Assembly (NCBI GenBank): GCA_043817235.1
Contig: JBDRHA010000006.1
Coordinates: 10,041 to 74,040, forward strand
Source: Candidatus Shapirobacteria bacterium
GTDB lineage: Bacteria; Patescibacteriota; Microgenomatia; UBA12405; BS750m-G30
Reading direction: 5' to 3'
DNA: 64,000 bases
Each line of letters opens with the position of its first letter. Within the stretch, counting starts at the first letter, position 1. A model generated the notes under the pieces. It saw nothing but the letters and a program-made list of their open reading frames with translations, made no database searches and was not told the DNA's origin. Shown here in pieces: positions 13,936-48,014 of this stretch. A program made the position numbers and the translations under genes.

Positions 13936-16641
13936 ATGACTAAACGAGATTTTAAAAAGCAGGAAAATAAGTGGCAAGTTGTTTGGGAAAAACAGGGCTG
14001 GTATCGGGCTAAGGATTTTGAAAAAAGGAAAAAGAAAAAATATGTTTTAGTTGAGTTTCCTTATCCTTCCGGCGAGGGTTTGCATATCGGCCATGCCTTT
14101 TCTATGACTGGCGCAGATATTTACGCTCGCTTTTGCCGGATGAGTGGTTTTAATGTTCTTTTTCCCATGGGTTGGGATGCTTTTGGCTTGCCTACGGAAA
14201 ATTACGCCATTAAAACCGGCATTTCGCCCCAAAAAGCGACCAAAAAAAACACTGATAATTTTCGGCGGCAGATGAAAAAGCTGGCTTTTTCTTTTGACTG
14301 GAGCCGGGAAATCAATACCACTGATCCGGATTATTATCGCTGGACGCAGTGGATTTTTATTCAGCTTTTTAAAAAAGGTTTGGCCTATAAAGAAGAAAAG
14401 CCAATAAATTGGTGTCCTTCCTGTCGAATTGGGCTGGCCAACGAGGAAGTGATTGACAGCAAGTGCGAGCGATGTGGGGCACAAACTCTTAAAAAGAATA
14501 TTAACCAGTGGATTGTTAAAATCACTGATTATGCTGAGCGCTTAATTTCCGGGCTGGAAGAAACTACTTTTGTTTCTAAAGTAAAAGCGGCTCAAATTAA
14601 CTGGATTGGCAGGAGTGAGGGGGCAAGGGTGAAGTTTAAACTTTCTCAAGACTCGGTCTCAATTTTGCGGTGCTCATCCCGCAGTGGCGGGACTCCTAAA
14701 ATTGAAACCTCGTCAGCTTTCTTGGAGGTTTTTACTACCCGTCCTGATACTTTATGGGGAGCGACTTTTATGGTGCTTTCTCCCGAGCACCGCCTTGTGG
14801 CGGAAATTCTAAATTCTAAATCCGAAGCTCCTGCCTCGCCGGCAGGCGGGCCAAATAAATCAAAAATTTCAAATTCTAATATTGAAGAAATTAAGAAATA
14901 TGTTAATCGGGCGAGGAGAAAGACAGATTTAGAAAGAGCCGAGCTGGAAAAAGAGAAAACCGGGGTCTTTACCGGGATTTATGCCCTAAATCCAGCGAAT
15001 AACGAAAAAATTCCGGTTTGGGTATCGGATTTTGTTTTAAGCACTTATGGTACCGGGGCGATTATGGCCGTGCCCGCTCATGACCAGCGGGATTTTGCTT
15101 TTGCTAAAAAATATAATCTGCCGATTATTCCGGTCATCAAGCCGCCGAAAAAATGGGACTTTGGTAAAGAGCCTTATGTGGATGTGGATCGGGGGGCAAT
15201 GATTAATTCCGGCCCGATTAATGGATTGGCACCGAAAGAGGCGATTAAAAAGACTTTAAATATACTAGAAAAAAAAGAAGCAGGGAAAAAAGCAATTGAT
15301 TATCACTTGCGCGATTGGATTTTTTCCCGCCAGCATTATTGGGGAGAGCCAATACCCATGACTTATTGCGCCAGATGCGGTTGGCAGCCGGTTAAAGAAT
15401 CGGATTTGCCGGTGGAATTGCCAAAGGTAAAAAAATATGAGCCGACTAAAACCGGAGAATCGCCTTTGGCCAATATTAGGGATTGGGTTAATGTTACGTG
15501 CCCAGTTTGTGGAGGTAAAGCTGAGCGGGAAACCGACACCATGCCTAATTGGGCCGGTTCAGATTGGTACTACCTCGCCTATTGCTTCGCAGGCAAACTC
15601 GGAAATTACAAATTACAAATTCCAAAGACCAAACAAATTACAAATTCCAATAACCAAAAACTAAAAAGTTTGGATACTTGTAATTTGGAGCTTGGAAATT
15701 CTCAAAATATTTTTGAGTCTTCAAAAGATGTTTTGAGCCATTGGCTGCCGGTGGATGTTTATGTGGGCGGAGACGAACATAATACTTTGCACCTGCTTTA
15801 TTCCCGGTTTATTTACCAGTTTTTGCGGGATCTGGGAGTAGTGCCCAAATCTATTCCCGAGCCTTATTATTGGCGGCTTTCCCATGGAGTAATTTTAGGG
15901 GCAGACGGGAGTCGTATGAGCAAATCGCGGGGCAACATAGTGGAGCCGGACAAGCTTTGGGAAAAATACGGCGTGGATGCTTTGCGCACTTATATGATGT
16001 TCATGGGCCCGTTTGAGGGAACGATTGTTTGGAATGATAATGCTTTAAAAGGGGTGGTGCGTTTTTTGGATAGATTTTATGATTTCGTAATAACTCCCGA
16101 GGTAGGCCTTGATTCCTCGAGAGCTGCTTCGAGTCCCGGAACTCCCGAGGTAGGCCTTGATTCCTCGGGAGTTGAGGTTGTTGCAATAAATAAGCTTGTT
16201 AATAAAGTTTCTCGTGACTTGTCTAGTTTTCAGTTTAATACGGCAATAGCGGCGATGATGGAATGGCTTAATCAGGCTGAAAAAGAGGCTTGGCAATTAA
16301 AAGACGAAGAAAAAAGAATTTTAATTCAGTTGATTGCACCGTTTGCTCCATATACGTCTGAAGATCTTTGGGAAAATTTGGGAGGAAAAGGGAGTGTGCA
16401 TTGGAGCAAATGGCCAGAAGTGGAAAAAAAGGCTCTTCGAGAAGAAGAGGTGGTTATTGCTGTTCAAGTTAATGGGAAGTTGAGAGCAACAATACAGCTT
16501 AAAACTAAAAGCTTAAAGCTTAAAGCCAGAATAGAAGAAAAAGCAAAGAAAGAAGAAAAAGTCGCAAAATACTTAAAAGGCAAGAAAATAATCAAAACTA
16601 TTTACATCCCGGGAAGATTAATTAACTTTGTGGTAAAGTAA
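13936..16641 (+). CDS. leuS: leucyl-tRNA synthetase
   Basis: HIGH motif PYPSGEGLHIGHAF; KMSKS motif SRMSKSRGN; TTRPDT editing-domain motif. Carries low-complexity and palindromic in-frame insertions (see findings). Confidence 0.95.
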   Translation: MTKRDFKKQENKWQVVWEKQGWYRAKDFEKRKKKKYVLVEFPYPSGEGLHIGHAFSMTGADIYARFCRMSGFNVLFPMGWDAFGLPTENYAIKTGISPQKATKKNTDNFRRQMKKLAFSFDWSREINTTDPDYYRWTQWIFIQLFKKGLAYKEEKPINWCPSCRIGLANEEVIDSKCERCGAQTLKKNINQWIVKITDYAERLISGLEETTFVSKVKAAQINWIGRSEGARVKFKLSQDSVSILRCSSRSGGTPKIETSSAFLEVFTTRPDTLWGATFMVLSPEHRLVAEILNSKSEAPASPAGGPNKSKISNSNIEEIKKYVNRARRKTDLERAELEKEKTGVFTGIYALNPANNEKIPVWVSDFVLSTYGTGAIMAVPAHDQRDFAFAKKYNLPIIPVIKPPKKWDFGKEPYVDVDRGAMINSGPINGLAPKEAIKKTLNILEKKEAGKKAIDYHLRDWIFSRQHYWGEPIPMTYCARCGWQPVKESDLPVELPKVKKYEPTKTGESPLANIRDWVNVTCPVCGGKAERETDTMPNWAGSDWYYLAYCFAGKLGNYKLQIPKTKQITNSNNQKLKSLDTCNLELGNSQNIFESSKDVLSHWLPVDVYVGGDEHNTLHLLYSRFIYQFLRDLGVVPKSIPEPYYWRLSHGVILGADGSRMSKSRGNIVEPDKLWEKYGVDALRTYMMFMGPFEGTIVWNDNALKGVVRFLDRFYDFVITPEVGLDSSRAASSPGTPEVGLDSSGVEVVAINKLVNKVSRDLSSFQFNTAIAAMMEWLNQAEKEAWQLKDEEKRILIQLIAPFAPYTSEDLWENLGGKGSVHWSKWPEVEKKALREEEVVIAVQVNGKLRATIQLKTKSLKLKARIEEKAKKEEKVAKYLKGKKIIKTIYIPGRLINFVVK

Positions 16642-18927: not shown

Positions 18928-19307
18928 TAATCGACACGAGTATTGTTATAGATCATCTTCGACAGAAAACTAAAATTAGATCTTATTTAGTAAAACTCGT
19001 CGAAAAACATCCTAAAAACGAACTAGCAATATCAGTTCTGAGTGTTCAAGAGCTATATGAAGGCAGGAGCACGAGGGATGTAAATCAGGAAAAAATACTT
19101 TTGGCGACAATAAGTCCCTTAAGAATCTTGCCCTATAATTATGAAACAGCTAAAATGGCGGGAGAAATAGCGCGTGACTTGGCGGAAACGATTCAATTTG
19201 CAGATGCGGCAATTGCGGCGACAGCCATCGTTAACGGTGGGCAATTAGCCACTTTAAATAAGAAAGATTTTCAGAAAATACGAGATTTAGATTTTTTTAA
19301 TTTTTAA
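18921..19307 (+). CDS. vapC: PIN-domain toxin VapC
   Basis: MVVIDTSIVIDHL...SVQELYEG...FADAAIAATAIVNGGQLATLNKKDFQKI. Confidence 0.75.
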   Translation: MVVIDTSIVIDHLRQKTKIRSYLVKLVEKHPKNELAISVLSVQELYEGRSTRDVNQEKILLATISPLRILPYNYETAKMAGEIARDLAETIQFADAAIAATAIVNGGQLATLNKKDFQKIRDLDFFNF

Positions 19308-22300
19308 ACTTTCAGCTTTTTGGATTTTTTGCCCTCCGGTTTTGAGCAAAATCTCTTTTTCAAACTCCTTTGGCCAGGAAGGAGCAAAAATAATTATTTT
19401 ATCGGTTAATTCTAAATTTTCTTTTCTTCGCAGCGTCTGGACTTCTCTAATTAAATCGCGCGCTTTACCCTCTTTTTTTAATTCTGGGGTTAATTTTGTA
19501 TTGAGCTTTATGCTTTTAGCTAATTTTATTTTTTTAATATTCAGCTCATCTAAAAGAAGATAGTCGATATTTAGCTTCTTAAAAAAGGAAGCGTTTGGCG
19601 AATACAAGGCGGAAAGCGGTTGCTTGACGGCAATATTTTTTGCTTTGCGCAAGGCATGACCTTCGGTAACTTCGTTTCTTAATTGAGCCATTGCTTTTTC
19701 TAAATCCAAATTTAAATATTTCTTTTCTATTTTTGGCCAAGACTGGAGATGAATGGAGTCTTTAACTTTTAATTTATTTTTATTTCCCTGAAGGTTCTGC
19801 CAGACGGTTTCCGGCAAAAAAGGAATAAAGATACCCAAAAGCAAGGAAAGCTGCTCCAGGCAATGATAGAGGGTGCTAAAACAAGCTTCGCGGTCCCTCG
19901 TGTTTTGGCTGTTGGGCGAGAGCCGCTCGCGGGAGCGGCGCACATACCAAAGGGAAAGATCTTCTATAAAGTTTTCTAAGCTTTTTAAGGCGTTTTGATG
20001 ACGAAAACGATTCAGTTCGCCTTGGGCCTCTTTTTTGGTGTTTTCCAGCCGAGAGAGAATCCAAGCGTCAAGCGGGCTAGTGTCATTGCGAGGAGTCGCT
20101 GAGGAGGCGTGGAAATCCAGTTTCCGTGTCATTGCGAGGATCGGAGCGACGTGGCAATCTTTCCAACGGGATCGCCACGCCCCCGACGTCACGTCGTGGG
20201 ACTCGCGATGACAAGGACACCAGCCATTTAAATTCGCATAAGTAGCTAAAAAGCGAAAAGAGTTCCAATAAAGGAAAATAAATCTTCGCCTGATTTCATC
20301 GGCAATAGAATAGCCAAAATTAAGGCCAAGATGGGGCCTTTGCCGGCAGTATAGCCAGCGCATCGTGTCTACTCCCATTTTTTCGACAGCCTCATCATAA
20401 GGAATGCCGTTTTTCTTGGTCTTGCTCATTCGCTCGCCTTTTTCGTCGCGCACTTCGCCGTGGTTAAGAACACTCTTGTATGGAGCCATATTTTCAAAAA
20501 TTACTCCGTAAACGAGCATCGAATAAAACCAGAGCCGGATTTGCTCAATCATTTCCAAAACTAAGTCAGCCGGGAACCACTTTTGCCAGTATTTTTTGTC
20601 TTCAAAATATTTTAAGGTAGAAAAAGGAACGACGCCTGCGTCCAGCCAGCAATCGCCCACGTCCAAAATTCGGTTTACGGGCTTACCGCACTGGGGGCAT
20701 TTGATTTTAATTTCATCAACCCAGGGTCGGTGCAAAGAGGGGAGTTTGTCGACTAAATTTTGGTTTACTGCCAATTTTTTTAGTTCTTTTTTAGAGCCGA
20801 TTACGGTTAGTTTTTTGCACTTAAGGCATTCATAAAAAGGCAAAGATAAGCCGTAAAAGCGCTTGCGGCTGATCATCCAGTCTCCCATATTATTGAGCCA
20901 GCCCTGCATTCTTTTTCCGGCAAATTTCGGAATCCAGTTGGCCGTGGCCGCGGCCTTTTTTAGCTCGGGCTTGATTTTGGTGCAATTAATAAACCAATTT
21001 TCTTCTAAGCGAAATAAAGTTTTTGCGCCGCACCGCCAGCAGTGGGGGTAAGAATGGGTAATGGTTTCCGTTTTATAAAGTAGATTTTTGTCTTTTAAAT
21101 AGTTAATTACTTCTTTTCCCACTTCGTGGGCGTATTTATTAGTTAAACTACCGTAGCCCGGGCCAAATTGGCCGGCTTCCGTTAAAGGAGAAAGAGCGGG
21201 TGCGCCCAAGCTTTTTCCCAGGAGAAAATCGTCTTCTCCACAGCCCGGAGCAATATGAACGATTCCGGTTCCTTCATCTGGATTAGCCAGCTTCCATTTT
21301 ACGACAGAATGCTTAATATTTTTTTGAGCGGGAATATCATAAAGCGATTCGTATTCTTGACCTAATAAATCTTTGGCGGCAACGGAGATTTGGTTTTTCA
21401 AGCCCAAGCGGTCGGCCGACTCTTTAGCCAAATACCAGTATTCGACTCCGCTGTCATCCCGAGCGTAGTCGAGGGATCTTCTTTTTTTTGTCATTGCGAG
21501 CGTAGCGAAGCAATCCCGAGTGGAATCTGTAATTTCAACGGGATCGCCATGTCCCGCAGCTGCGGGACTCGCGATGACACGATTCTTCGCGACGACACGG
21601 ACTTTCACATACTCATATTCTGGATTGATCGCCAAAAGGACGTTAGCAGATAAAGTCCAGGGGGTTGTAGTCCAGGCTAAGAAATACTCATTCTTTTTAT
21701 TTTTTAAAGGGAATTTAACATGAACGGAAAAATCTTGAATATCTTTATAGCCTTCGGCCTGTTCATGGCGGGATAAACCGGTTTCGCACCTCGGGCACCA
21801 GGTGGTGGCGGATTTTGCCTTATAAAGTAATTCTTTTTGGCGGCAGATTTGCAAAAATTTCCAAATATATAAATTATTAGTTTCCGAATAAGTATAATAG
21901 GAATTATCCCAATCCATAAAATAGCCCAAGCGCTTGGACTGCTCGGCTTGCAAGGCAGCATAAGTTTTGACCCGGTCTTGGCATGATTGGGTAAATTTAG
22001 CTAAACCATATTTTTCAATATCTTTTTTGGAATTAAAGCCTAAGGCTTTTTCCACCTCTACTTCAACCCAAAGTCCCTGGCAGTCAAACCCGTTTTGAAA
22101 TCTTTGCTGATAGCCTTGGGCGTTTTTGTATTTTTGATAAAGGTCTTTTAAGGTTCGGCCCCAGGCATGGTGCGCACCCATGGGGTTATTGGCAGTAATT
22201 GGGCCGTCAATAAAAGAAAAGCGCTTTTTAGAATTTTTATTTTTGGCTAAATATTTTTCAAGCAAGCCGTTTTTTTCCCAAAACTTAAGAATCTTTTTTT

Positions 22301-22370
22301 CGTTTTGAACAAAATCAAATTGAGCTTCGGGTAAAGCAAAATAATTTTCTTTCTTTTTCTTAGTTTTCAT
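19287..22370 (-). CDS. ileS: isoleucyl-tRNA synthetase carrying two in-frame MITE insertions
   Basis: HxGH-type motif NPMGAHHAWG; KMSKS-like ERMSKTKKNG; Zn-finger-like WCPRCETGL; CP1 editing region. The ORF is continuous across repeats at 20084-20222 and 21437-21600. Confidence 0.95.
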   Translation of the reverse strand: MKTKKKKENYFALPEAQFDFVQNEKKILKFWEKNGLLEKYLAKNKNSKKRFSFIDGPITANNPMGAHHAWGRTLKDLYQKYKNAQGYQQRFQNGFDCQGLWVEVEVEKALGFNSKKDIEKYGLAKFTQSCQDRVKTYAALQAEQSKRLGYFMDWDNSYYTYSETNNLYIWKFLQICRQKELLYKAKSATTWCPRCETGLSRHEQAEGYKDIQDFSVHVKFPLKNKKNEYFLAWTTTPWTLSANVLLAINPEYEYVKVRVVAKNRVIASPAAAGHGDPVEITDSTRDCFATLAMTKKRRSLDYARDDSGVEYWYLAKESADRLGLKNQISVAAKDLLGQEYESLYDIPAQKNIKHSVVKWKLANPDEGTGIVHIAPGCGEDDFLLGKSLGAPALSPLTEAGQFGPGYGSLTNKYAHEVGKEVINYLKDKNLLYKTETITHSYPHCWRCGAKTLFRLEENWFINCTKIKPELKKAAATANWIPKFAGKRMQGWLNNMGDWMISRKRFYGLSLPFYECLKCKKLTVIGSKKELKKLAVNQNLVDKLPSLHRPWVDEIKIKCPQCGKPVNRILDVGDCWLDAGVVPFSTLKYFEDKKYWQKWFPADLVLEMIEQIRLWFYSMLVYGVIFENMAPYKSVLNHGEVRDEKGERMSKTKKNGIPYDEAVEKMGVDTMRWLYCRQRPHLGLNFGYSIADEIRRRFIFLYWNSFRFLATYANLNGWCPCHRESHDVTSGAWRSRWKDCHVAPILAMTRKLDFHASSATPRNDTSPLDAWILSRLENTKKEAQGELNRFRHQNALKSLENFIEDLSLWYVRRSRERLSPNSQNTRDREACFSTLYHCLEQLSLLLGIFIPFLPETVWQNLQGNKNKLKVKDSIHLQSWPKIEKKYLNLDLEKAMAQLRNEVTEGHALRKAKNIAVKQPLSALYSPNASFFKKLNIDYLLLDELNIKKIKLAKSIKLNTKLTPELKKEGKARDLIREVQTLRRKENLELTDKIIIFAPSWPKEFEKEILLKTGGQKIQKAESLKIKKI
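20084..20222. repeat. MITE pair inserted in frame in ileS (encodes ...CPCHRESHDVTSGAWRSRWKDCHVAPILAMTRKLDFHASSATPRNDTSPLDA...)
   Basis: gtcattgcgaggagtcgc ... gtcattgcgaggatcggagcgacgtggcaatcttt ... cgtgggactcgcgatgaca. The host frame is not broken. Confidence 0.85.
21437..21600. repeat. MITE pair inserted in frame in ileS (encodes ...ASPAAAGHGDPVEITDSTRDCFATLAMTKKRRSLDYARDDSG...)
   Basis: gtcatcccgagcgtagtcgagggatc, gtcattgcgagcgtagcgaagcaatcc and cccgcagctgcgggactcgcgatgaca. Confidence 0.85.
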
Positions 22371-22493
22371 CCTCCTTATTTTACCCCAATTTCCTTAAAA
22401 AATCTGCCGATATTCAACCTCGGGAGTTGATTACCCTTGCAACATCGGGAATCTGAAAAAAGTTGAACACAGGGCGCGTGCGAGTCAAATATT

Positions 22494-24947
22494 TTGCTAT
22501 ACTGGAATTTAATGAAGCGTTTAGGCTTAACTGCTTACCAAGTGGATCAGGCTAGACAAAAGCATGGCTCCAATGTTTTGCCGGAAGAAAAAAGAAAATC
22601 AGCTTGGCGCCTAGTCTTTAGTCAGCTCCAAAACCCTCTAATTTATATTTTGATTTTTGCCAATTTAGTCACTTTAGCTTTAGGCGACTATTCCGACTCC
22701 TTGGTTATTTTTTTGGCGGTAGCAGTTAATACTTTTTTGGGATTTTGGCAAGAAAAAAAAGTTGATCAGGCTCTATCGGCCTTGAAAAAGGCGATTCCTT
22801 TTAAGGTTGTAGCGATAAGGGACCGGAAAGAAGAGGAGATTGAGGCCAAGGACTTGGTTCCGGGAGATTTGGTTAAATTATCCGCCGGCCAGAAAATTCC
22901 GGCGGACGGAAGGCTGCTGGAAAGCCACGATTTGGCAATTAATGAAGCGGTTTTGACCGGGGAATCTCATCCAGTGCGCAAAAAGGCCAGCAGTAAAAAA
23001 AGCCGAGAACATGCTGTTTATTCCGGCACGGTAGTTGTCGGCGGCAGTGGTCTATTTGAAGTGACCAAGATTGGGTTAAGCACTAAAATTGGCCAAATTG
23101 CCCAAACTTTACAGCACACTGCGCAAGAACCTACCCCGCTGCAGCAGCAATTGACCAAATTAGCTAAAACTTTAGCTATAGTCGTTGGCGTCTTGTGTTT
23201 GTTGATTTTTGTTTGGGAAGTTTTGGAGGGAGGAGAGGTGGCGGAGATGTTTGAGCTAGCGGTGGCTATTGCTGTTTCGGCTATTCCTGAGGGCTTGATT
23301 ATTTCTTTGACGGTAATTTTGGCCATTGGGATGCAGAAGATATTTCAAAATAACGCTTTAGTGCGCCGTTTGGTTTCTGCCGAAACCTTAGGGGCGACCA
23401 GTGTTCTTTGTGTTGACAAAACAGGAACAATTACTTTAGGCGAAGTGCAATTAGTGGACTTAAAGGCCGACAAAAAGCGAGCGGCCTTGCGAGCGGCGGT
23501 TTTAGGAGCGGATTTATCTTCGGCGGAGGGCTTAGGAATTTGGGAATTTGCTAAAGAGAAAAAAGTTTTTGACCCCCAAAGAATAAAAGAAGCGGTCAAA
23601 AAAATTTATTTTGCCCCTTTTTCTTTTAAAAAAAAGCTTACCTACGCGATATATGAAGAAAAAGAGAGGAAATTTTGCTATACCGTTGGTGCACCGGAGG
23701 TATTATTGCGCTCCTGCTGTTCAGCCGATCAAAAAAAGTGGTTAAAGTTAATTGATCGCTATTCTGCTCAGGGCTATCGTTTATTAGGCATAGCTGTTTC
23801 GCAAAAAAAGGGCAAAGCGCGAAAAATAGCTGATTTTGGCTGTTTTCAATTTTTGGGCTTACTCAAATTGGAAGACCCGCCTCGGAGGCGGGTGAAAAAA
23901 ACTCTCCAAGAGTGTAGGCAAGCCGGACTGAAAATAAAAATTATTACCGGTGATTATTTGGCCACGGCTCGCGCTCTTTTGGAAAAAATTGGGATTGAGC
24001 TTAAAGCGGGAGAGTATTTGGAAGGCGAAGAACTAAAAGCTTTAAGCGAAGCGCAAAAGAAAGAAAGGATAAGCAAAACTGTTTTATTTGCCCGCACCGA
24101 TCCTTTTCAAAAGTTAGAAATTGTTCAGTCTTTAAAAGAGAGCGGGGAAGTAGTAGCGATGACTGGAGACGGAGTGAATGATGCTCTGGCCTTGAAAAAA
24201 GCGGACATTGGTGTTGTGGTGGCAGAAGGTACTCAGGTAGCTAAAGAAACAGCGGATATGGTTTTGCTGGACAATAATCTGTCCACAATTGTTCAGGCGA
24301 TTGCCCAGGGCCGAGTGATCTTTCAAAATATTCGTAAAGTAACGGTTTATTTGCTTGCCGATAGCTTTACGGAAGTAGTTTTAGTTATTGGTGCGCTGAT
24401 TTTAAGACTGCCCTTGCCCTTGCTGCCGGTGCAAATTCTTTGGGTCAATCTCATTGCCGATTCCTTTCCTTCTTTTGCTCTGGCTTTTGAAAAAGAAGAT
24501 GGCTGGTTGATGAAACAGCCGCCCCGTCGAAAAGATCAGCCGATTTTAGACAAAGAGGCCAAAATAATTATTTTTATTATTGGCTTGGTCACTGATCTAA
24601 TTTTATTAGGTTTCTTTTGGTATTTTAATCGCTCTAGTCTAGATATTCATTATATCCGCTCTTTTATCTTTGCCGCTTTATCAACAGACTCTCTTTTATA
24701 CGTATTTGCCTGCAAAACATTTGCCAAAAGCATCTGGCATACTCGGGTTTTGGACAATAAGTATTTGAATCTTTCGGTTCTTTTAGGTTTTGTTATGTTA
24801 ATCGTTACTTTTGTTTTTCCGCCTTTGGCTCGGCTCTTTGAGCTAACCCCTTTGGGTTGGGACAGCGTCCTCTTAATCGCCGTTTTAGCCGTAGTGGAAA
24901 TCGGCTTGATTGAGTTTGTCAAATTGTTTTTTCTTATTGACAAATAG
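22494..24947 (+). CDS. P-type cation-transporting ATPase (type II-like, HAD superfamily). The true start is probably the ATG at 22512.
   Basis: DKTGTIT phosphorylation motif (LCVDKTGTITLG), GDGVNDALALKKADIGV hinge motif, TGES-like TGESHPV, N-terminal cation-ATPase domain, 8-10 TM helices. Confidence 0.9.
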   Translation: MLYWNLMKRLGLTAYQVDQARQKHGSNVLPEEKRKSAWRLVFSQLQNPLIYILIFANLVTLALGDYSDSLVIFLAVAVNTFLGFWQEKKVDQALSALKKAIPFKVVAIRDRKEEEIEAKDLVPGDLVKLSAGQKIPADGRLLESHDLAINEAVLTGESHPVRKKASSKKSREHAVYSGTVVVGGSGLFEVTKIGLSTKIGQIAQTLQHTAQEPTPLQQQLTKLAKTLAIVVGVLCLLIFVWEVLEGGEVAEMFELAVAIAVSAIPEGLIISLTVILAIGMQKIFQNNALVRRLVSAETLGATSVLCVDKTGTITLGEVQLVDLKADKKRAALRAAVLGADLSSAEGLGIWEFAKEKKVFDPQRIKEAVKKIYFAPFSFKKKLTYAIYEEKERKFCYTVGAPEVLLRSCCSADQKKWLKLIDRYSAQGYRLLGIAVSQKKGKARKIADFGCFQFLGLLKLEDPPRRRVKKTLQECRQAGLKIKIITGDYLATARALLEKIGIELKAGEYLEGEELKALSEAQKKERISKTVLFARTDPFQKLEIVQSLKESGEVVAMTGDGVNDALALKKADIGVVVAEGTQVAKETADMVLLDNNLSTIVQAIAQGRVIFQNIRKVTVYLLADSFTEVVLVIGALILRLPLPLLPVQILWVNLIADSFPSFALAFEKEDGWLMKQPPRRKDQPILDKEAKIIIFIIGLVTDLILLGFFWYFNRSSLDIHYIRSFIFAALSTDSLLYVFACKTFAKSIWHTRVLDNKYLNLSVLLGFVMLIVTFVFPPLARLFELTPLGWDSVLLIAVLAVVEIGLIEFVKLFFLIDK

Positions 24948-24964
24948 GCAATTAGCGTAATAAA

Positions 24965-26536
24965 TTGGGAAAAGTGAAAAAATTAAAAGATCGTCTTTCT
25001 TTAAAAAGCTGGCTGCTGGTTTTTTTAGGACTAGCTCTTTTTGTAACGGTTTTGCAGATAAATGAAAGTCGGGAACCGCGCGGCGGGGCTCAAGCAGGAG
25101 AGAAGAAAATTGAAGTTGCTTTTTATAATTGCTCTGCTCATGCTTTGATCGTTGGTGAAGAATGCTATCTTTCCGCTTTAGTTCGGGATGAGAATAACCG
25201 ATCTTTGTTTGATGGATATCGCTACGATTGGAGCATTTCTTCAGATGGCTCTTTAGGGGAGCTTATTTTTGGCACTGACAAAATCGCGACTTTAAAAGTG
25301 CGAGAAGCAGGAAAGGGTGATTTAGTGGTGCGGGCGATCTCTGTGAGTACGGGAGAAATTATCACGAGAAGTATTGCTATTACCGCTTTAAATGAGCCTT
25401 TGGAGAGCGATTGCCAAAGAAGAGGGAGCAAAATTTCTGTTACGCCCTTGGGTGGCGAGGGGAAGTGCCATGATGTTCAGCAGGCGATAGATGTCGCTCA
25501 AAGCGGGGATGAGATTTGGTTATCGCCGGGAACATACCAAGTTAAAAGTAAAAACTGTTTTTCACTTCCGTATTCCTCCGAAGGTGGCCCAACATGCGGT
25601 CTAGAGATTAACGGAAAAAATAATCTTAGAGTCTTGTCGTCCTATGGTTCGTCTATTCTGGAATTTCAAGGCAGTGAGCATGGTTTGGTTCTTTCCTCTG
25701 TTAGTAATATTACCCTTAGAGGGTTATCGTTTCAAAAACAAGCGAATAATGCAATATATATTGTTAATAGTAATAATATTCATTTAGAAGAATTATCTTA
25801 CAATCAGTTTAATGGCAATTTAATTCTGGCGGAAGATTCTGATGGTCTGATGATTGCCCGAAATGTTTTTTATAACTATGATGGCCAGGACCAAGTTGAT
25901 TCTTTAGTTTTTTCACATATTCAAGGAGTGATTAGCAATAGCGTGTTTACTGGTGCTAACATTTTAGTCCGGGTAGATTCTGACTCAGATTTACAGGTTT
26001 TGCATAATACTTTTAACCAGAACAGAGCGGCTAGAATTATTCTTGGCGACAATGGGGTAAATAAAGTAGCTTTTAAGAATAATCTCGTCTTGGAAAGTGA
26101 GGGAGAGATGGTAGTTGGATCGCAAGGCGAAGTTGAGGCTGATTATAACTCTTTTTGGAATGTTCATGGGTCAGTTCAAGGGCTGATTAATTTAGGGATG
26201 CACAATATGTACACCGAGCCCAAAATTGATAGTAGAAATTTATGTCTCATGCCCGGGTCGCCCCTAATTGGTGCTGGAGAAAATGGTGGTAATATTGGAG
26301 CTTATTCTGAATGTAGATACCGAGGTTTTTGCTCTTGCTCGTTTGATTTAGGAGTAATTTATAAATCAAAAGGTGACGCCAATTGTGATAACAGGACTGA
26401 CCAAATCGATTACAATGCTTGGTTTGATAGCTTTATTAGAGGAAGTACTAAGTACGGCTTAGAGGCCGATTTAAACTGCAGTGGCAAAGTGAGCATTGAT
26501 GACTATGAGGTCTGGCGGCGATTTTTTATGTGGTGA
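24965..26536 (+). CDS. secreted right-handed parallel beta-helix protein (pectate-lyase fold-like) with a C-terminal dockerin-like double Ca-binding repeat
   Basis: N-terminal TM/signal. Repetitive N.....G.l. beta-helix rungs (NNIHLEELSYNQF...; ISNSVFTGANILVRV...; LHNTFNQNRAARIIL). C-terminal DANCDNRTDQIDYNAW and DLNCSGKVSIDDYEVW resemble dockerin type-I repeats. Confidence 0.55.
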   Translation: MGKVKKLKDRLSLKSWLLVFLGLALFVTVLQINESREPRGGAQAGEKKIEVAFYNCSAHALIVGEECYLSALVRDENNRSLFDGYRYDWSISSDGSLGELIFGTDKIATLKVREAGKGDLVVRAISVSTGEIITRSIAITALNEPLESDCQRRGSKISVTPLGGEGKCHDVQQAIDVAQSGDEIWLSPGTYQVKSKNCFSLPYSSEGGPTCGLEINGKNNLRVLSSYGSSILEFQGSEHGLVLSSVSNITLRGLSFQKQANNAIYIVNSNNIHLEELSYNQFNGNLILAEDSDGLMIARNVFYNYDGQDQVDSLVFSHIQGVISNSVFTGANILVRVDSDSDLQVLHNTFNQNRAARIILGDNGVNKVAFKNNLVLESEGEMVVGSQGEVEADYNSFWNVHGSVQGLINLGMHNMYTEPKIDSRNLCLMPGSPLIGAGENGGNIGAYSECRYRGFCSCSFDLGVIYKSKGDANCDNRTDQIDYNAWFDSFIRGSTKYGLEADLNCSGKVSIDDYEVWRRFFMW

Positions 26537-26553
26537 ATTTATAGAGGTCGGAA

Positions 26554-27072
26554 CTAGGGCGAGGTTATTTCTCGTGGTGGAAGAACGCGCTCTCTGATTG
26601 TATAAATCGTATTTGCTAGGGTTTCATGTCTTTCTTTTTTGGTTTCGTATTCTTGCTCGTAAACAATAGCTAAAAGAACAGATGCTCGATGCAGGGGGTA
26701 ATTTAGTGCTTTTAGGCTGGGGACACAATCTATTAGCCCTTGGGCGCTTTTCCTATAAAAGTCAGTAACCTGTTGAAAAGTTGAACCAGCTTTTTCTGCC
26801 AAGCTGCTTATTGGATGAAACCAGCTCATCCTTAGAACTTCTCCGGCTGCTTGGCGAAAAGGCCCGCTTATTTGAGCATCTTTTTCTTTCATTCTTCGGG
26901 CGGAAAATAAATATTGAAGAAGGCAAGATTCCACTCCGTTTAACTGCAATCTTTGCGCTATTCGGGCGGCTTGAAAGAAAGTGCCAGTTTCTTTGTCTTG
27001 CCCGTTGCGGACCAGTCTAAAAAATAATGATTGTTCTTGTTCAAAACCAGGAGGAGCAAATTCAGGCCTCAT
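26554..27072 (-). CDS. hypothetical protein
   Basis: 172-aa ORF with no recognised motifs. Confidence 0.35.
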   Translation of the reverse strand: MRPEFAPPGFEQEQSLFFRLVRNGQDKETGTFFQAARIAQRLQLNGVESCLLQYLFSARRMKEKDAQISGPFRQAAGEVLRMSWFHPISSLAEKAGSTFQQVTDFYRKSAQGLIDCVPSLKALNYPLHRASVLLAIVYEQEYETKKERHETLANTIYTIRERVLPPREITSP

Positions 27073-27230
27073 AATAACCTATATTATACCAGCCTCTTTC
27101 TTGTTTATCCAGAAAAAAGTTTATAGAATAATAGAAGACTAGGAGTGGAAGAACAAGAGAAAGAGAAGAAGAAAGAGGAAAATTAGAATTATTTCGGCTC
27201 GGAGTATGAGTCGAAAAGAAAGGGGTATTT

Positions 27231-27521
27231 ATGAATAAAGATAAAAAGGTAAGATTAGTGCCTAAATTTAAAAATGAGGCGCAAGAGCGAAAATTTTGGG
27301 CTAATCATGATTTAGCTGATTATCTTGAACAGTTCCAGTCAGTTAATCTTGATTTATCAGAGTTAAGACCGTCTACTAAGCCAATTACCATCAGGTTGCC
27401 CGTTTCTCTAATTTCAGCTTTAAAAGGGTTAGCTCACAAAAGAGACGTTCCTTACCAATCTTTACTGAAAATATTTTTAGCCGAAAGAGTGGAAAAAGAA
27501 ATTAAAAATATCCATGCTTGA
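27231..27521 (+). CDS. BrnA/COG3514-like antitoxin (ribbon-helix-helix family)
   Basis: KNEAQERKFWANHDLADYLE...KPITIRLPVSLISALKGLAHKRDVPYQSLLKIFLAERVEKE matches the BrnA-family pattern E.eF.E.HD...KR.TIRLP..ll..lK..A...G.pYQ.Lik.flae (from memory). Confidence 0.5.
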   Translation: MNKDKKVRLVPKFKNEAQERKFWANHDLADYLEQFQSVNLDLSELRPSTKPITIRLPVSLISALKGLAHKRDVPYQSLLKIFLAERVEKEIKNIHA

Positions 27522-27780
27522 ACGGGAAGAGCTAACCGAACCCAGAGAAATAGAATTAGTGGAGCTAGCGGATGATCAAAAAGTAACTTGGTATACTCCT
27601 GATTTGGGAGGAGTGGAAATTGAAGTTAAAGGAAAGTTTATTAAAAGGGCAGCCGAGGTGCTAGAAGAATACGGCCGAGAAATAAAATTGACAGTCATTG
27701 GGGCGACAGTATTAGCTATGGTTGTGGCTATTGTTCGCAAAAAGCGAAGCAAAGCAATTCCAGAAGCTGAACTTCCTTAG
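27514..27780 (+). CDS. small protein with a C-terminal TM helix, translationally coupled to the BrnA-like gene (ATGCTTGA overlap)
   Basis: ...EIKLTVIGATVLAMVVAIVRKKRSK is a single hydrophobic helix followed by a basic patch. Confidence 0.35.
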   Translation: MLEREELTEPREIELVELADDQKVTWYTPDLGGVEIEVKGKFIKRAAEVLEEYGREIKLTVIGATVLAMVVAIVRKKRSKAIPEAELP

Positions 27781-27795
27781 TGTATAATCAGAAAA

Positions 27796-28362
27796 ATGAA
27801 GAGGAGAAATAGACAAAGATGCCTTATTTTAATAGACGGCAGCAATTTCTACTTTAAGCTCAAAGAAATAAAACTTCAAAATCTTCTTGAATTTGATTTT
27901 TATAGATTTTCTGAAATGCTAGCAAGAAGGAAAGGGGAAGTAGCTCAGGCTACATATTATGTTGGCAGAATTCGCACAGATGGAACGGCAAAAACAAAAC
28001 GTTTGTTTAATGACCAAAGAAAGCTTTTGGCCCACTTAAAAAAATGTAAATTTTCCTACTCTCTTGGATATTTGATGAAAACAGATGGAAAATACCACGA
28101 AAAAGGAGTGGATGTTAATATTGCCGTAGATATACTGGTCTCGACGTATGAAAATTTGAGTGATAGGATAATTGTTGTTTCGTCAGATACGGATTTATTA
28201 CCAGCAATCCAAAAGGCAAAGGAAAAAGGTAAAATTGTGGAATATATTGGTTTTTCTCACCGGCCGAGTGTTGCTATGGTAGCTACTTGTTCTGTTTCTC
28301 GTCTTTTAGGGAGAGAAGATCTTGAAAAATTTACCAAAAGAAGAAACAAAAAAAGCCTGTGA
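27796..28362 (+). CDS. NYN-domain (LabA-like, PIN-related) putative ribonuclease
   Basis: CLILIDGSNFYFKLKE...VDVNIAVDIL...IIVVSSDTDLLPAIQKAKEKGKIVEYIGF are the conserved acidic residues of the NYN/LabA family. Confidence 0.65.
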   Translation: MKRRNRQRCLILIDGSNFYFKLKEIKLQNLLEFDFYRFSEMLARRKGEVAQATYYVGRIRTDGTAKTKRLFNDQRKLLAHLKKCKFSYSLGYLMKTDGKYHEKGVDVNIAVDILVSTYENLSDRIIVVSSDTDLLPAIQKAKEKGKIVEYIGFSHRPSVAMVATCSVSRLLGREDLEKFTKRRNKKSL

Positions 28363-28441
28363 AGACCTTGCGGCGTCACAGGCGGTTTTAGTAATTGAAT
28401 ATATCATGAAAAAAGCTTATTTGTCAATGAATATAAAATAA

Positions 28442-29692
28442 TTGTCGCATATAATTAAAAAAATGAAAGTTGAGCAATTTAGTTTAAAAAACGGCCTGAA
28501 TGTTTTTTTAGTTCCCCAAAAAGAAGCGACTTCAGTAGCTGTCCAATTATTAGTTGCGGCTGGTTCGAAAAACGAAAAAAAAGGCAATTACGGTTTGGCT
28601 CATTTTTTGGAGCATATGGCTTTTAAGGGTACTAAAAAATGGCCGACGGCTAAAATTTTGGCTAAAATTTTGGACAGTTCCGGAGCAGTTTATAATGCTT
28701 CCACTGGTAAGGAAGGGACTGATTACTGGATTAGAGTTACTCCCAAAAAGCTGGATCTGGCTTTGGAAATCATCTCCCAGATGCTTATTCATGCTTTGCT
28801 TCCCTCTCCCGAGCTTGAAGTGGAGCGGGGAGTAATTATTGAGGAAATGAATATGTATCAAGATCAGCCGCGGGATCTGGTGGGCGATTATTTTGAAGAA
28901 CAGCTTTTCGGAAAAAACGCTTTGGGTCGGGCGATTATTGGCAAAAAGAAGGACATTTTAAGGGTAAAAGCCCAGGACTTTTTGGATTTTAAAAAGCAGT
29001 GGTATTTGGGCTCTAATATGAGCTTGGCTGTAGTGGGCGCTATTCCTGATTTAAAAAAAGTCAGGCAGAATATCAAAAAATTGTACGACGTAATCGAAAA
29101 AGGAGAAGTAGAAAGACTAGAAATAGGGGCAGAGTCCAAAAAAGAAGAAATCTTTTGGCAAAAAAAGAAAGCAGAGCAAACGCATTTTGTTTTAGGCTTT
29201 CCTGGAGTAACAGTTACAGACGAGCGCAAATGGGCTTTAGAGATACTGATGGCTATTTTGGGCCAGGGCATGAGCTCTCGGCTTTGGGAGGAAGTTCGAG
29301 AGAAAAGGGGACTGGCTTATTATGTTTATTCTTTTTACGGAAATATGGAAACAACGGGGTGTTTTGGTGCGGCCGCAGGCGTAAAGAATCAATCCTCAAA
29401 GCTGGCTATTGAGCTGGTGAAAGATGAGTTTGTAAAGCTTACGAAAAATTTAACTAAAGAAGAGGTTACGCGGGCCAAAACAATGTCGAATGGGCAGTTT
29501 TTAATTTCTGTTGAAAGTCCTTTAAAAGTGGCAATGCTCTTAAACGGCCATTGGCTGAATGTGGGGAAAGTGATGACTCCGGAAGATCTTATTAAAAGAT
29601 CAAATAAAGTTACTTTTGATGAGGTGAGAAAAGTGGCTAAAGAGCTTATTGATCTTTCTGATCTTCGAGGAGCGGTGATTGGCCCTCGTTGA
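28442..29692 (+). CDS. M16-family zinc peptidase (pitrilysin/insulinase-like)
   Basis: Inverted zincin motif GLAHFLEHMAFKGT (HxxEH) with downstream Glu. About 410 aa, typical of single-chain M16B. Confidence 0.85.
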   Translation: MSHIIKKMKVEQFSLKNGLNVFLVPQKEATSVAVQLLVAAGSKNEKKGNYGLAHFLEHMAFKGTKKWPTAKILAKILDSSGAVYNASTGKEGTDYWIRVTPKKLDLALEIISQMLIHALLPSPELEVERGVIIEEMNMYQDQPRDLVGDYFEEQLFGKNALGRAIIGKKKDILRVKAQDFLDFKKQWYLGSNMSLAVVGAIPDLKKVRQNIKKLYDVIEKGEVERLEIGAESKKEEIFWQKKKAEQTHFVLGFPGVTVTDERKWALEILMAILGQGMSSRLWEEVREKRGLAYYVYSFYGNMETTGCFGAAAGVKNQSSKLAIELVKDEFVKLTKNLTKEEVTRAKTMSNGQFLISVESPLKVAMLLNGHWLNVGKVMTPEDLIKRSNKVTFDEVRKVAKELIDLSDLRGAVIGPR

Positions 29693-29852
29693 GGTAAATA
29701 ATCCTTCCTTGTTTAATAGCAATAGCTTCGGCCAAATTGTGCTCGTGAGGATTTTTTCCTTCAATTATATCTTGCACTCCCGCCAGTTCTTTGCAAGGAT
29801 TTAAGCGCACAGCACGACCTCTCCAGTTTAAGGGAATATGTTCAGCGGACAT
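29646..29852 (-). CDS. hypothetical small protein
   Basis: 68-aa ORF overlapping the 3' end of the M16 gene on the other strand. Weak call. Confidence 0.2.
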   Translation of the reverse strand: MSAEHIPLNWRGRAVRLNPCKELAGVQDIIEGKNPHEHNLAEAIAIKQGRIIYLNEGQSPLLEDQKDQ

Positions 29853-30198
29853 GATTGGTTTTGATTACTTTAATAAACCAGTAAAATAAATAGCTAAGAG
29901 CGAAAAGCGAAAAACTTAAAGCCAGAGAATCTAAATATTTTAGACCCGATCCCAGAATACTGGGCAGGGGGATATTAAAAAAATATTTTAAAACTAAATA
30001 AATTGCGCTAAATGAAAAAGCAAAAATCAGCGGGCCGCTTAAAGCGAATACTATTAAACTTATTTGGGAAAAATCTTTTTTATTAAAAATCCTATTTAAG
30101 GTTAAAAAGGGATGAAATATTAGTCCCAAAAGATTAACCAAAAGCAGATAAATCTCTTTAATAAAAATTAAAAAGCTTAATTTAATTATTCTCCCCAT
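29842..30198 (-). CDS. small polytopic membrane protein immediately downstream of the ECF sigma factor; possible anti-sigma factor
   Basis: 3-4 hydrophobic helices. Gene order sigma then membrane protein on the same strand with a 9-nt gap. Confidence 0.35.
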   Translation of the reverse strand: MGRIIKLSFLIFIKEIYLLLVNLLGLIFHPFLTLNRIFNKKDFSQISLIVFALSGPLIFAFSFSAIYLVLKYFFNIPLPSILGSGLKYLDSLALSFSLFALSYLFYWFIKVIKTNHVR

Positions 30199-30206
30199 CT
30201 ACTAAT

Positions 30207-30752
30207 TTAGTCGTTAGTTTTAAGCAATATCCTTCGCAACAAGCGGCGGGCGCGGGACAAGGCGGACTCAACGGCTTTGGGAGAAGTGGCTAATTTTACG
30301 GCAATTTCTTTAATTGAATATTCTTTAAAATATTTTAATCTAATTAGCTTTTGGTAGCGTTTAGGCAGGCGTTCTAATATCTTTATTATTTCTTGTTTAA
30401 GCTCGCTTTTTAAGGCCTCTTCTTCCGGCGTTAGTGCTTTGCTTGCCAATACTTCTAAAAAAGGAAAATGGGAAAAAAGAATGGTTTTAATTCTTTTTTT
30501 TCGATAATAGTCGGCAATTTCGTGCTTGGCAATGCTAATTAAAAAAGTAGAAAGTGAACATTGAAATTGAAAATTAGATAAAGAATTATGAGCGGCCCAA
30601 AAAGTGTCCTGAACTATTTCTTCGGCGTCTTTCGGATTATCGATTCGGCCAAGAACATAGTTAGTTACTTTTTTTTCAAATTTTTGATAAAAAATTATGC
30701 TTGCGCCGGGCTTTTTTTGAAGAATTTGATTAATTAGTTTTTTTTCGATCAC
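30207..30752 (-). CDS. ECF-type RNA polymerase sigma-70 family factor
   Basis: Region-2-like DAEEIVQDTFWAAHNSLSNF and region-4 HTH YSIKEIAVKLATSPKAVESALSRARRLL. Confidence 0.7.
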   Translation of the reverse strand: MIEKKLINQILQKKPGASIIFYQKFEKKVTNYVLGRIDNPKDAEEIVQDTFWAAHNSLSNFQFQCSLSTFLISIAKHEIADYYRKKRIKTILFSHFPFLEVLASKALTPEEEALKSELKQEIIKILERLPKRYQKLIRLKYFKEYSIKEIAVKLATSPKAVESALSRARRLLRRILLKTND

Positions 30753-30778
30753 TATTTTATATTATAATAGCTTTAACA

Positions 30779-31348
30779 GTGAAAAATAAAAAAGCTTATT
30801 GGCAGCAGAGTGTAGTATTAATCAAGCCCGATGGGGTAGCCAGAGGGCTAATTGGCGAGATAATCTCTCGGTTTGAAAAAGTGGGCTTGAAAATGACTGC
30901 TTGCAAGTTAGTGGTGATTCCTCGGGAAATAGCTTTTAAACATTATGGCTATAATGATGAGTGGTTTGAGAATGTGGGAAAAAAAGTAATGGAATTTTAT
31001 AAAGAGCACGGAAAAGATCCCAACGAAGAGCTGGGAACCATGAAGTCTAAAGAGATTGGCAAAATGGTTCAGGAGTGGAACGTGAATTACTTAACTTACG
31101 GTCCGGTTTTGGCTATGATTTGGGAAGGCCAGCACGCCATAGAAGTAATAAGAAAGATTGTTGGCTCCACGTATCCAAATCAGTCAGCTCCGGGAACCAT
31201 AAGAGGAGATTACGCTTTTGACTCGCCCTTAATTTCGAATTCGGAAAAAAGATCAGTTTTTAACTTGATTCATGCTTCAGGAAAAGAAGAAGAGGCAAAA
31301 TTGGAGATTGAGCTTTGGTTTAAAAAGGAAGAGATTTGTAGGTATTAA
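30779..31348 (+). CDS. ndk: nucleoside diphosphate kinase (long form with insertion); GTG start
   Basis: QQSVVLIKPDGVARGLIGEIISRFEKVGLKMTACKL and NLIHASGKEEEAKLEIELWF are NDK signatures including the catalytic His region. Confidence 0.9.
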   Translation: MKNKKAYWQQSVVLIKPDGVARGLIGEIISRFEKVGLKMTACKLVVIPREIAFKHYGYNDEWFENVGKKVMEFYKEHGKDPNEELGTMKSKEIGKMVQEWNVNYLTYGPVLAMIWEGQHAIEVIRKIVGSTYPNQSAPGTIRGDYAFDSPLISNSEKRSVFNLIHASGKEEEAKLEIELWFKKEEICRY

Positions 31349-31474
31349 GATTGTCAACCTCGGGGGTTAATTGCCCTTGCAACATCGGGAGAACCCCCAG
31401 TCTTGCGCTTACCTGCCCGCCATCCGGCCTAAGCCGTCAGGCGCTGGCAGGCGGGGGATGCGCTCTTTTCCTTG

Positions 31475-31546
31475 TGCCCCCGAAAGGAATCGAACCTTTA
31501 TCTGTCGCTTAGGAGGCAACTGCTCTATCCATTAAGCTACGGGAGC
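31475..31546 (-). tRNA. tRNA-Arg (anticodon CCT)
   Basis: Reverse complement folds as GCTCCCG-TA-GCTT-AATGGAT-AGAGC-A-GTTGC-CTCCTAA-GCGAC-AGATA-AAAGG-TTCGATT-CCTTT-CGGGGGC-A. Confidence 0.8.
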
Positions 31547-31573
31547 GATAGGCCTATTATTATAGCTCAAAAA

Positions 31574-32892: not shown

Positions 32893-33068
32893 AGATCCTT
32901 CGGCTACGCTCAGGATGACGAAGAGAGTGTCATTGCGAGAGCTTTGACTTGCACACACCCGGTGTGGTTCGGGTCACACCGGGTGTGTGGCGATCCCGTT
33001 GAGATTGCCATGTCAGTCGCCCCGTAGCTGCAAGGCTCCTTCCTCGCAATGACAGGGAGTTGTTGGTA
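32893..33068. repeat. MITE-like repeat cluster with the cacacccggtgtggttcgggtcacaccgggtgtgtg hairpin
   Basis: ccttcggctacgctcaggatgac; a full element tgtcattgcgagagc...ttcctcgcaatgaca with the hairpin nested inside. Confidence 0.8.
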
Positions 33069-47778: not shown

Positions 47779-47878
47779 TGTCATTCCCGATTCTGATCGG
47801 GAATTCTCTGTCATCCTGAGCGTAGCCGAAGGATCTATTGCTTCCAAAGATTCCTCGGTTGCACTCGGAATGACCTTT
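47779..47878. repeat. MITE-like repeats inside the rplJ leader
   Basis: tgtcattcccgattctgatcgggaattc, tgtcatcctgagcgtagccgaaggatctat and ctcggttgcactcggaatgac. Confidence 0.75.
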
Positions 47879-47892
47879 TAGTAACGTGCACA

Positions 47893-47925: not shown

Positions 47926-48014
47926 TTAAGTTTTTGGCTTTAAGCTAATTACCGCCTCGGTAAGATTTTTAAGTCCCGCAGCTGCGGGAGACTTACTGTC
48001 TTGGGCTAGACTTA

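Follow-up and report, generated by a model that had tools for sequence, protein, structure and literature searches.

A short 37-nt intergenic repeat present in two copies in a repeat-rich Shapirobacteria genome

REP and BIME elements of proteobacteria are imperfect palindromes of 20-40 nt. The motif analyzed here, from a 64-kb stretch of a Candidatus Shapirobacteria MAG (the window), resembles them in size class, intergenic location at gene ends, small hairpin, lineage restriction and lack of coding capacity: it is 37 nt long, and both of its copies lie in spacers. It differs in that two copies are seen within 64 kb, a GTAG-type head is lacking, no RAYT transposase is visible, and the palindrome is weak, with a stem of only 5-6 bp that folds no better than shuffled sequence. 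Nor are its copies paired like REPINs; they are direct and 9 kb apart. Direct repeats of a few tens of nucleotides, one of them beside a tRNA gene, also recall the attL/attR sites of tRNA-targeting elements, but the motif does not consist of tRNA sequence, no integrase turned up, and one of the supposed boundaries falls within conserved gene order.

Two further comparisons are instructive. Small H-type pseudoknot riboswitches (preQ1-I and guanidine-III, 34-41 nt) are of similar size, and a stem with loop-to-tail pairing can be drawn for the motif; unlike them, it has no covariance-model match, no conservation, no consistent position ahead of genes and no expression platform after copy 1. The same genome also carries MITE-like GC-rich hairpin repeats (the GTCATYCCGAGCG... 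families), which behave like Rickettsia palindromic elements in that they sit in frame within genes. The motif occupies the same type of spacer and has short words in common with such repeated pieces, ATCGGGAATCTG with family D15 and ACCTCGGGAGTT with a hairpin in leuS, but it was undetected by six family profiles, lacks terminal inverted repeats and, at 37 nt, is not a multiple of three in length.

A compact, sharply bounded repeat in two unlike spacers

The original prediction that a 37-nt motif occurs twice in direct orientation was borne out by pattern search, shuffling and blastn. Pattern search of the plus strand gave exactly two matches: copy 1, TCAACCTCGGGAGTTGATTACCCTTGCAACATCGGGA, at 22414-22450 with no mismatch to the query, and copy 2, TCAACCTCGGGGGTTAATTGCCCTTGCAACATCGGGA, at 31354-31390 with three. 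Copy 2 had been placed correctly, whereas copy 1 had been placed one base off, at 22413-22449, and the 33 identical positions first counted become 34 of 37 on alignment. The differences fall at motif positions 12 (A/G), 16 (G/A) and 20 (A/G). The pattern matched in none of 100 dinucleotide-preserving shuffles, giving a chance expectation of zero. Blastn of the two 1.1-kb neighborhoods returned a single significant match, 37 nt at 91.9% identity (E = 1e-9), with no collinear similarity around it, also with word size 7. In a MAFFT alignment, identity stops abruptly at both ends of the unit, and outside it only GAT at -5 to -3 is common to both copies. The 37-nt repeat is real, compact and sharply bounded.

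Copy 1 lies, as predicted, in the divergent spacer between ileS (19287-22370, minus strand, ATG at 22370) and a P-type ATPase gene (probable ATG at 22514), both recognized by Pfam scan; the start codons of ileS and the ATPase are 44 and 64 nt away, respectively. Putative -10 hexamers, TAAAAT 7 nt before the ileS ATG and TATACT before the ATPase, place copy 1 just upstream of both. Copy 2 lies in a convergent spacer between the 3' ends of ndk, which ends at 31348, and tRNA-Arg(CCT) (31474-31546, minus strand). It starts 5 nt past the ndk stop codon; this position, and the tRNA gene on the opposite strand, had been recognized correctly, but the gap to the tRNA 3' end is 83 nt and not 85.

A Pfam scan of ten ORFs between 19.3 and 30.8 kb identified IleRS, the P-type ATPase, a beta-helix protein, CopG, NYN, an M16 peptidase and an ECF sigma factor, with three ORFs giving no match; Ndk and the PEGA protein were identified separately. 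The gene content originally listed for the segment between the copies stands for the ATPase, the beta-helix protein, the CopG-type antitoxin/NYN module, the M16 peptidase, the ECF sigma factor and ndk, whereas the ORF at 29842-30198, which has no Pfam match, is labeled a putative anti-sigma factor from its position only.

Inside the unit, CAACnTCGGGA occurs twice as a direct repeat, 25 nt apart, and is kept in both copies. In copy 1 the plus-strand half-repeats are CAACCTCGGGA (22415-22425) and, beginning 25 nt later, CAACATCGGGA (22440-22450), which match at 10 of 11 positions; their equivalents in copy 2 are CAACCTCGGGG (31355-31365) and the stretch at 31380-31390. By our own estimate, an internal repeat of this quality within 37 nt has a chance probability of about 0.003. 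Inspection of the 5' part of the unit reveals a short hairpin, TCAAC and GTTGA around CTCGGGA (22414-22430 in copy 1). On this evidence, the unit looks like a duplicated 25-nt piece with a 5-6-bp hairpin. Its ends, TCAACCTCGGGA and CAACATCGGGA, are direct and not inverted repeats, and the flanks (GATAT/ATCTG and GATTG/GAACC) show no target-site duplication. With neither terminal inverted repeats nor target-site duplication, no transposition mechanism can be named.

The copies do not delimit a mobile segment

The two copies bracket 22.45-31.35 kb beside tRNA-Arg, and the original prediction offered attL/attR-like ends of an integrated element as one explanation. Their direct orientation, the proximity of one copy to a tRNA gene and the toxin-antitoxin-like CopG/NYN module inside the segment would all suit such an element. 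However, the gene order M16 peptidase-(ECF sigma/putative anti-sigma)-ndk-tRNA-PEGA-MreB is unbroken over copy 2 in at least eight independent relatives; the order M16-ndk-tRNA-PEGA-MreB is kept across this position in loci L003, L004, L006, L007, L009-L011, L032 and L044. The right-hand repeat therefore lies inside a syntenic block and not at an insertion boundary. Furthermore, an integrase or recombinase domain was found in none of the ten ORFs scanned with Pfam (19.3-30.8 kb), and the motif is not a tRNA 3' end (local alignment of the copies to tRNA-Arg(CCT), p = 0.44 and 0.23 against shuffles). GC content is flat, at 0.39-0.42 between 22 and 32 kb on either side of the repeats, values that also fall in the range of the remaining window, and the cargo would consist of housekeeping genes (ATPase, M16 peptidase, sigma factor, ndk). 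These data contradict the integrated-element explanation, which we consider extremely improbable: the motif copies do not delimit a mobile segment. Separately, a tRNA origin of the motif was considered and rejected, as none of the four tRNAs in the window resembles it significantly; tRNA-model searches of the copy 1 region gave no match at E <= 10.

The GC-rich imperfect hairpin originally noted after copy 2 is present, outside the repeat, at about 31405-31463. Aligned on the minus strand to the interrupted tRNA-Arg of relative L004 with its inner tRNA removed, this sequence scores 44, a value reached by none of 1000 shuffles (mean 15, maximum 25). Judging from this alignment, the hairpin is a relic of a tRNA-Arg(CCT) anticodon arm carrying an insert. 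After it on the plus strand comes UCUUUUCC, and it could act as a terminator for ndk. In the tRNA-Arg locus, an insert lies at anticodon position 35/36, one that relatives retain.

These surroundings bear on another explanation, in which an old duplication or rearrangement of greater extent would have decayed at its flanks and left only the two copies; a spacer moved along with a tRNA-related relic would be an example, and no repeat-specific spreading would be involved. Turnover of tRNA genes in the clade has a hot spot in the ndk-PEGA spacer, copy 2 abuts the interrupted tRNA-Arg relic, and the region from leuS to the M16 peptidase is completely different among relatives, all of which is consistent with such a history. 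Against it, no similarity is left outside the 37 nt, even at word size 7, and unless constraint or a recent event was involved, decay would be unlikely to leave precisely 37 nt that are 92% identical and sharply bounded. We regard an old duplication as distinctly unlikely.

Candidate functions of the unit

Searches of relatives and of public collections turned up no further copy of the repeat. Conservation in relatives, which the original prediction proposed as a check, failed at both orthologous sites: the ndk-tRNA spacers of L001-L007, L009-L011, L032 and L044 lack the motif, as does the region upstream of ileS in L051, the contig with the closest IleRS, and neither nhmmer nor a covariance model found homologs in 51 loci totaling 674 kb. 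The exact pattern TCGGG-N9-CCCTTGCAACATCGGG gave zero matches in a genome collection and a metagenome collection, as did AACCTCGGGNGTTNATTNCCCTTG in the metagenome collection; because these scans demanded identity at 21 fixed positions, copies diverged by more than about 5-10% would escape them. The 17-mer core had one chance match, in a GC-rich viral contig. A phage collection gave no match, a plasmid collection only weak ones (best E = 9), and a generalized hairpin pattern nothing recurrent. The best outside matches of the covariance model (E = 0.1-0.3) were to one GC palindrome in an L051 intergenic spacer. At the copy 2 position of L004, a palindrome, GTCCGATGTTACATCGGAC, has CCGATGTT in common with the motif; with an estimated p of about 0.05-0.1, we did not count it.

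We considered whether the motif could be a small structured RNA transcribed from the minus strand: a leader for ileS in the case of copy 1 and, for copy 2, a trailer on the tRNA-Arg transcript. Two GUUG segments are possible pairing partners of its CAAC, and the resulting hairpin or pseudoknot could affect processing or stability. Minus-strand transcription is plausible for both copies. The minus-strand hairpin UCAACU-CCCGA-GGUUGA has six pairs in copies 1 and 2: of the three differences, two are tolerated there as G-U wobbles (C-G to U-G) but break pairs on the plus strand. But any stem transition yields a wobble on one strand, and two on the same strand are expected by chance with a probability of about 0.25-0.5, so the wobbles do not decide the strand; we dropped this assignment, which comprises two observations and is not significant. 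A marginal covariance-model match in the L051 intergenic spacer (17.9 bits, E about 0.1) includes an A-U to C-G change, but it is a generic GC palindrome that is unrepeated elsewhere. Fold energies are no better than those of shuffles (z = -0.8 and -1.0), Rfam holds no match to the motif at E <= 10, and if ileS is leaderless, given TAAAAT 7 nt before its ATG, copy 1 falls outside the mRNA. Such an RNA seems to us quite doubtful.

Regulatory or terminator RNA in general, another option of the original prediction, finds no support in Rfam, folding, consensus scans, the context of copy 2 or relatives. Rfam searches returned nothing at the gathering threshold; at E <= 10 they gave nothing for copy 1 and, for copy 2, only chance miRNA/snoRNA matches on the neighboring hairpin. 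Across the folds computed, z-scores against shuffled sequence ranged from -1.0 to +0.1. Consensus scans called neither an intrinsic terminator (GC hairpin and U-tract) nor sigma-70 -35/-10 hexamers in the motif at either site. A consistent position and orientation ahead of regulated genes is likewise lacking, copy 2 being between convergent 3' ends. Two specific candidates were rejected along the way: a riboswitch with terminator on the plus strand, as copy 1 has no stable hairpin downstream (-3.8 kcal/mol, z = +1.85), and an ECF-sigma or sigma-70 promoter inside the motif, as no -35/-10 spacing is consistent in both copies.

The internal repeat could instead reflect a DNA site for a sequence-specific protein, with two putative direct 11-bp half-sites (CAACnTCGGGA) spaced by 25 bp. 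Centered about 55 bp upstream of ileS, copy 1 would then act at the divergent ileS/ATPase promoters; copy 2 would serve as an additional or decoy site, or as a roadblock where ndk and tRNA-Arg converge. The improbability of the internal repeat, retained in both copies, the sharp drop in identity outside the unit and the location of copy 1 relative to the putative -10 hexamers, as expected of an activator site or operator, are consistent with this proposal. On the other hand, neither strand of copy 2 shows a promoter-like site, and no gene lies downstream of it; half-sites spaced by 25 bp are not in helical phase, the site has no linked candidate regulator, and relatives with the same genes lack it. 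We therefore rate a protein-binding site as unlikely. Resemblances to Ter, dif, parS and IHF sites were considered but dropped as partial and biologically implausible.

Taken together as a lineage-private functional cis-element, whether a target with tandem half-sites (CAACnTCGGGA twice) for a DNA- or RNA-binding factor or a minimal minus-strand RNA switch with two mutually exclusive CAAC/GUUG pairings, the motif would tie the promoter region of ileS and the ATPase to the junction of ndk and tRNA-Arg. We think it rather improbable that the motif is such an element.

A low-copy repeat among many others

Short GC-rich hairpin repeats abound in this genome: the window holds at least 60 direct-repeat families and 252 inverted pairs, and some of these repeats lie in coding sequence. 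A 48-aa IleRS insertion found only in the window (21453-21596) is the exact site of repeat copies D2 and D3, and leuS contains a 48-nt tandem duplication/hairpin (16090-16185) within a variable linker (TPEVGLDSS twice). The motif and the leuS hairpin share ACCTCGGGAGTT(G)ATTAC (17 of 18 positions; 0 of 300 shuffles) and TTGCAA-N6-CAACTCCCGAGG, their common words being 12-18 nt long. In addition, the last 7 nt of copy 1 and its flank match family D15 over 12 nt in an nhmmer profile search, a match that straddles the copy 1 edge. Profiles of the MITE-like families D1, D2, D3, D8, D10 and D16 (six of the seven families tested with nhmmer) did not match the motif. The original statement that it is unrelated to the MITE family thus holds for whole-unit profiles but not for short words, which it has in common with two other repeated pieces.

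We favor, with about an even chance of being right, a low-copy, lineage-private short repeat without demonstrated function in a repeat-rich Shapirobacteria (CPR) genome. The third repeat family suggested at the outset survives in this form, although 'family' is generous for two visible members: the count of two covers 64 kb of a contig recorded as 146.7 kb and is a minimal basis for speaking of a dispersed repeat. One spacer would have gained a copy of sequence in the other, whether through transposition-like spread, illegitimate recombination or patch gene conversion. Short hairpin-forming repeats are scattered everywhere in this genome, in frame inside ileS and leuS too. The motif would then be neutral, with no sequence-specific cellular function: copy 2 would be a passive passenger in the 3' untranslated region of ndk, and copy 1 another, upstream of the promoters of ileS and the ATPase gene. 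Since the two contexts are so unlike, divergent promoters in one case and convergent 3' ends in the other, passive copies fit better than a shared cis-function. A binding site under constraint could likewise show 92% identity, sharp edges and an internal repeat that both copies retain.

By itself the motif matters little, as one more short repeat in a repeat-saturated CPR genome, and it can be removed from lists of candidate islands and candidate riboswitches. The negative result is informative in that direct repeats beside a tRNA gene do not imply an integrated element here. More is to be learned from the surroundings, namely the in-frame repeats in two aminoacyl-tRNA synthetase genes and the insert of the tRNA-Arg locus, while the motif itself offers a marker for following deletion or gene conversion between its copies in population data.

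A 37-nt repeat in two gene spacers

A pattern search allowing up to three mismatches placed the motif twice in direct orientation, as originally noted, with both copies on the + strand at 22414-22450 (copy 1) and 31354-31390 (copy 2); 100 shuffles gave an expectation of 0 matches. Copy 1 starts one base later than had been noted, and the copies agree at 34 of 37 positions, one more than first counted, leaving three differences. Comparing the 1.1-kb neighbourhoods by MAFFT and by blastn with word size 7 confined the likeness to these 37 nt (E = 1e-9), outside which the copies have in common only a GAT five bases upstream. The pair could be a remnant of an older duplication whose surroundings share nothing beyond those bases, a reading that we consider quite improbable. 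Searching the 64-kb window with nhmmer at relaxed thresholds yielded no third copy. Within the motif, CAACCTCGGGA and CAACATCGGGA form an internal direct repeat, 25 nt apart and retained in both copies; such an arrangement is compatible with a protein-binding site made of tandem half-sites, although we regard this as unlikely.

The genes originally listed around the motif were largely borne out by Pfam. Copy 1 occupies the spacer from which ileS (minus strand, ATG at 22370) and the P-type ATPase gene diverge. Copy 2 starts 5 nt past the ndk stop, and 83 nt separate its end from the 3' end of tRNA-Arg(CCT); because that tRNA gene is on the strand opposite ndk, the copy sits between two convergent gene ends. 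Only 26 nt separate the start codons of ndk and the ECF sigma gene. Hexamers resembling a -10 box occur 7-8 nt ahead of the start codons of ileS (TAAAAT, 22378-22383), ECF sigma (TATAAT, 30758-30763), and the P-type ATPase (TATACT, 22497-22502); for the last of these, ATG at 22514 is preferred over TTG at 22494. Judging by these spacings, the ileS, ATPase, and ECF sigma mRNAs may be leaderless or near-leaderless, in which case copy 1 would stand upstream of both the ileS and ATPase promoters and not in a leader.

Conserved gene order across copy 2

The suggestion that att-like repeats delimit the 9-kb segment conflicts with a conserved gene block that crosses the position of copy 2. Relatives were reached by way of their Ndk homologues, the nearest to be had at 67-76% amino-acid identity (tblastn), and their loci keep the order M16 peptidase-(ECF sigma/putative anti-sigma)-ndk-tRNA(s)-PEGA protein-MreB; copy 2 falls inside this block, not at its edge. 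The content from leuS to the M16 peptidase, where copy 1 lies, is wholly different among relatives. Since this interval is so variable, the 9 kb do not form one unit. No recombinase domain was present in any of 10 ORFs scanned, GC content is uniform across the bracketed segment, and the motif bears no resemblance to tRNA-Arg. On these grounds we rejected the pair as an island boundary; that the motif is an att site is highly improbable.

The ndk-PEGA spacer itself (31349-31573) is a turnover hot spot for tRNA genes. The corresponding spacers of relatives (L009:11341-11547; L010:10661-10868; L032:16246-16441; L044:10565-10860) hold tRNA-Pro(CGG) plus tRNA-Arg(CCT) in the opposite orientation, or tRNA-Pro, tRNA-Ser, and tRNA-Arg(TCT); that of the window holds one tRNA-Arg(CCT) only.

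A relic of an interrupted tRNA-Arg gene beside copy 2

The GC-rich imperfect hairpin beside copy 2 is an object distinct from the motif. Two independent assemblies of one relative (L003:3895-4085; L004:2785-2975) show the tRNA-Arg(CCT) ortholog with a 118-nt insert between anticodon positions 35 and 36, in which GC-rich arms enclose another complete tRNA-Arg(CCT), so that one tRNA is nested in another. Once the insert is taken out in silico, the outer gene is identical to that of the window at 69 of 73 positions and is called tRNA-Arg(cct) by ARAGORN. The insert arms and anticodon-arm flanks of these loci align with the window hairpin and the GCGCATCC and TAAGCG that flank it (score 44 vs a maximum of 25 in 1000 shuffles). 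The hairpin (within 31391-31473), just downstream of the intact tRNA gene, is thus the relic of an interrupted tRNA-Arg gene, of which only arms and anticodon-arm flanks are kept. On the + strand the hairpin is followed by UCUUUUCC, and it may now terminate ndk. For group I introns of Patescibacteria, position 35/36 of tRNA genes was recently reported as the insertion site (PMC13011429); the nested insert uses the same site, but it is too short for such an intron and is preceded by C, not U.

A possible lineage-private repeat among hairpin modules

A small regulatory or terminator RNA had also been proposed, for which Rfam, folding, promoter and terminator scans, and relatives provided no evidence. 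The motif matched no Rfam family even at E <= 10, folded on neither strand more stably than shuffles, and coincided with no promoter or terminator match; no expression-platform hairpin lies downstream of copy 1. None of the relatives examined has it in the ndk-tRNA spacer, and it is likewise missing from the region upstream of ileS on L051, the locus with the closest IleRS (59% identity). Two complementary exact patterns of 21 specified positions each returned 0 matches in genome and metagenome collections, which evidently do not include the source genome. A covariance model of the two copies matched elsewhere only marginally, at a GC palindrome of L051 (E = 0.1-0.3). G-U wobbles preserve a 6-bp minus-strand hairpin at two of the three copy differences, which is weak evidence because any stem transition gives G-U on one strand or the other; we hold a minus-strand RNA element to be rather improbable.

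A divergent spacer of L051 (L051:14780-14835) contains a direct pair of CTCCACCCC(C)GGGG(G)TG units, of which the second lies within a perfect 14-bp palindrome. This layout of hairpin and direct half-repeat is loosely like the 37-nt motif (covariance-model E about 0.1, marginal).

Repeats abound in the window: at least 60 families of direct repeats and 252 inverted pairs, most of them GC-rich hairpin modules. Profiles of six of its repeat families did not detect the motif, and the profile of family D15 gave a 12-nt match only, running from the final 7 nt of copy 1 into the flank. The motif does have words in common with a 48-nt tandem duplication (16090-16185, + strand) inside leuS (13936-16641), namely ACCTCGGGAGTT(G)ATTAC (17/18) and TTGCAA-N6-CAACTCCCGAGG; by our estimate, such sharing has a chance of roughly 1e-3 to 1e-4 at the scale of the window. 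This duplication forms a hairpin with an 11-bp stem, encodes TPEVGLDSS twice, and sits in a variable linker that thereby exceeds the linker of relatives by about 15 aa.

In ileS (19287-22370), an in-frame insertion of 48 aa (21453-21596, minus strand), found only in the window when compared with five of the closest homologues, coincides exactly with copies of the MITE-like families D2 and D3 and recalls Rickettsia palindromic elements inside coding sequence. The protein has 1027 aa vs 903-999 aa in the homologues listed. Another D3 copy (47974-48000) overlaps the ribosomal protein L10 leader (47884-48023, minus strand; RF00557, 47.4 bits vs a gathering score of 44), which a D2 copy (47810-47839) adjoins. 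A further two-copy element of 46 nt, CACACACCCGGTGTGGTTCGGGTCACACCGGGTGTGTG..., occurs inverted at 722-767 and 32948-32993 (83% complementary), one of the copies lying just upstream of the gene for the PEGA protein.

Given the profile misses and the words shared with leuS, the motif is a separate small unit, yet one that seems to draw on a common stock of hairpin words. We give about an even chance to its being a lineage-private, low-copy short repeat without demonstrated function, which one spacer would have received as a copy from the other.
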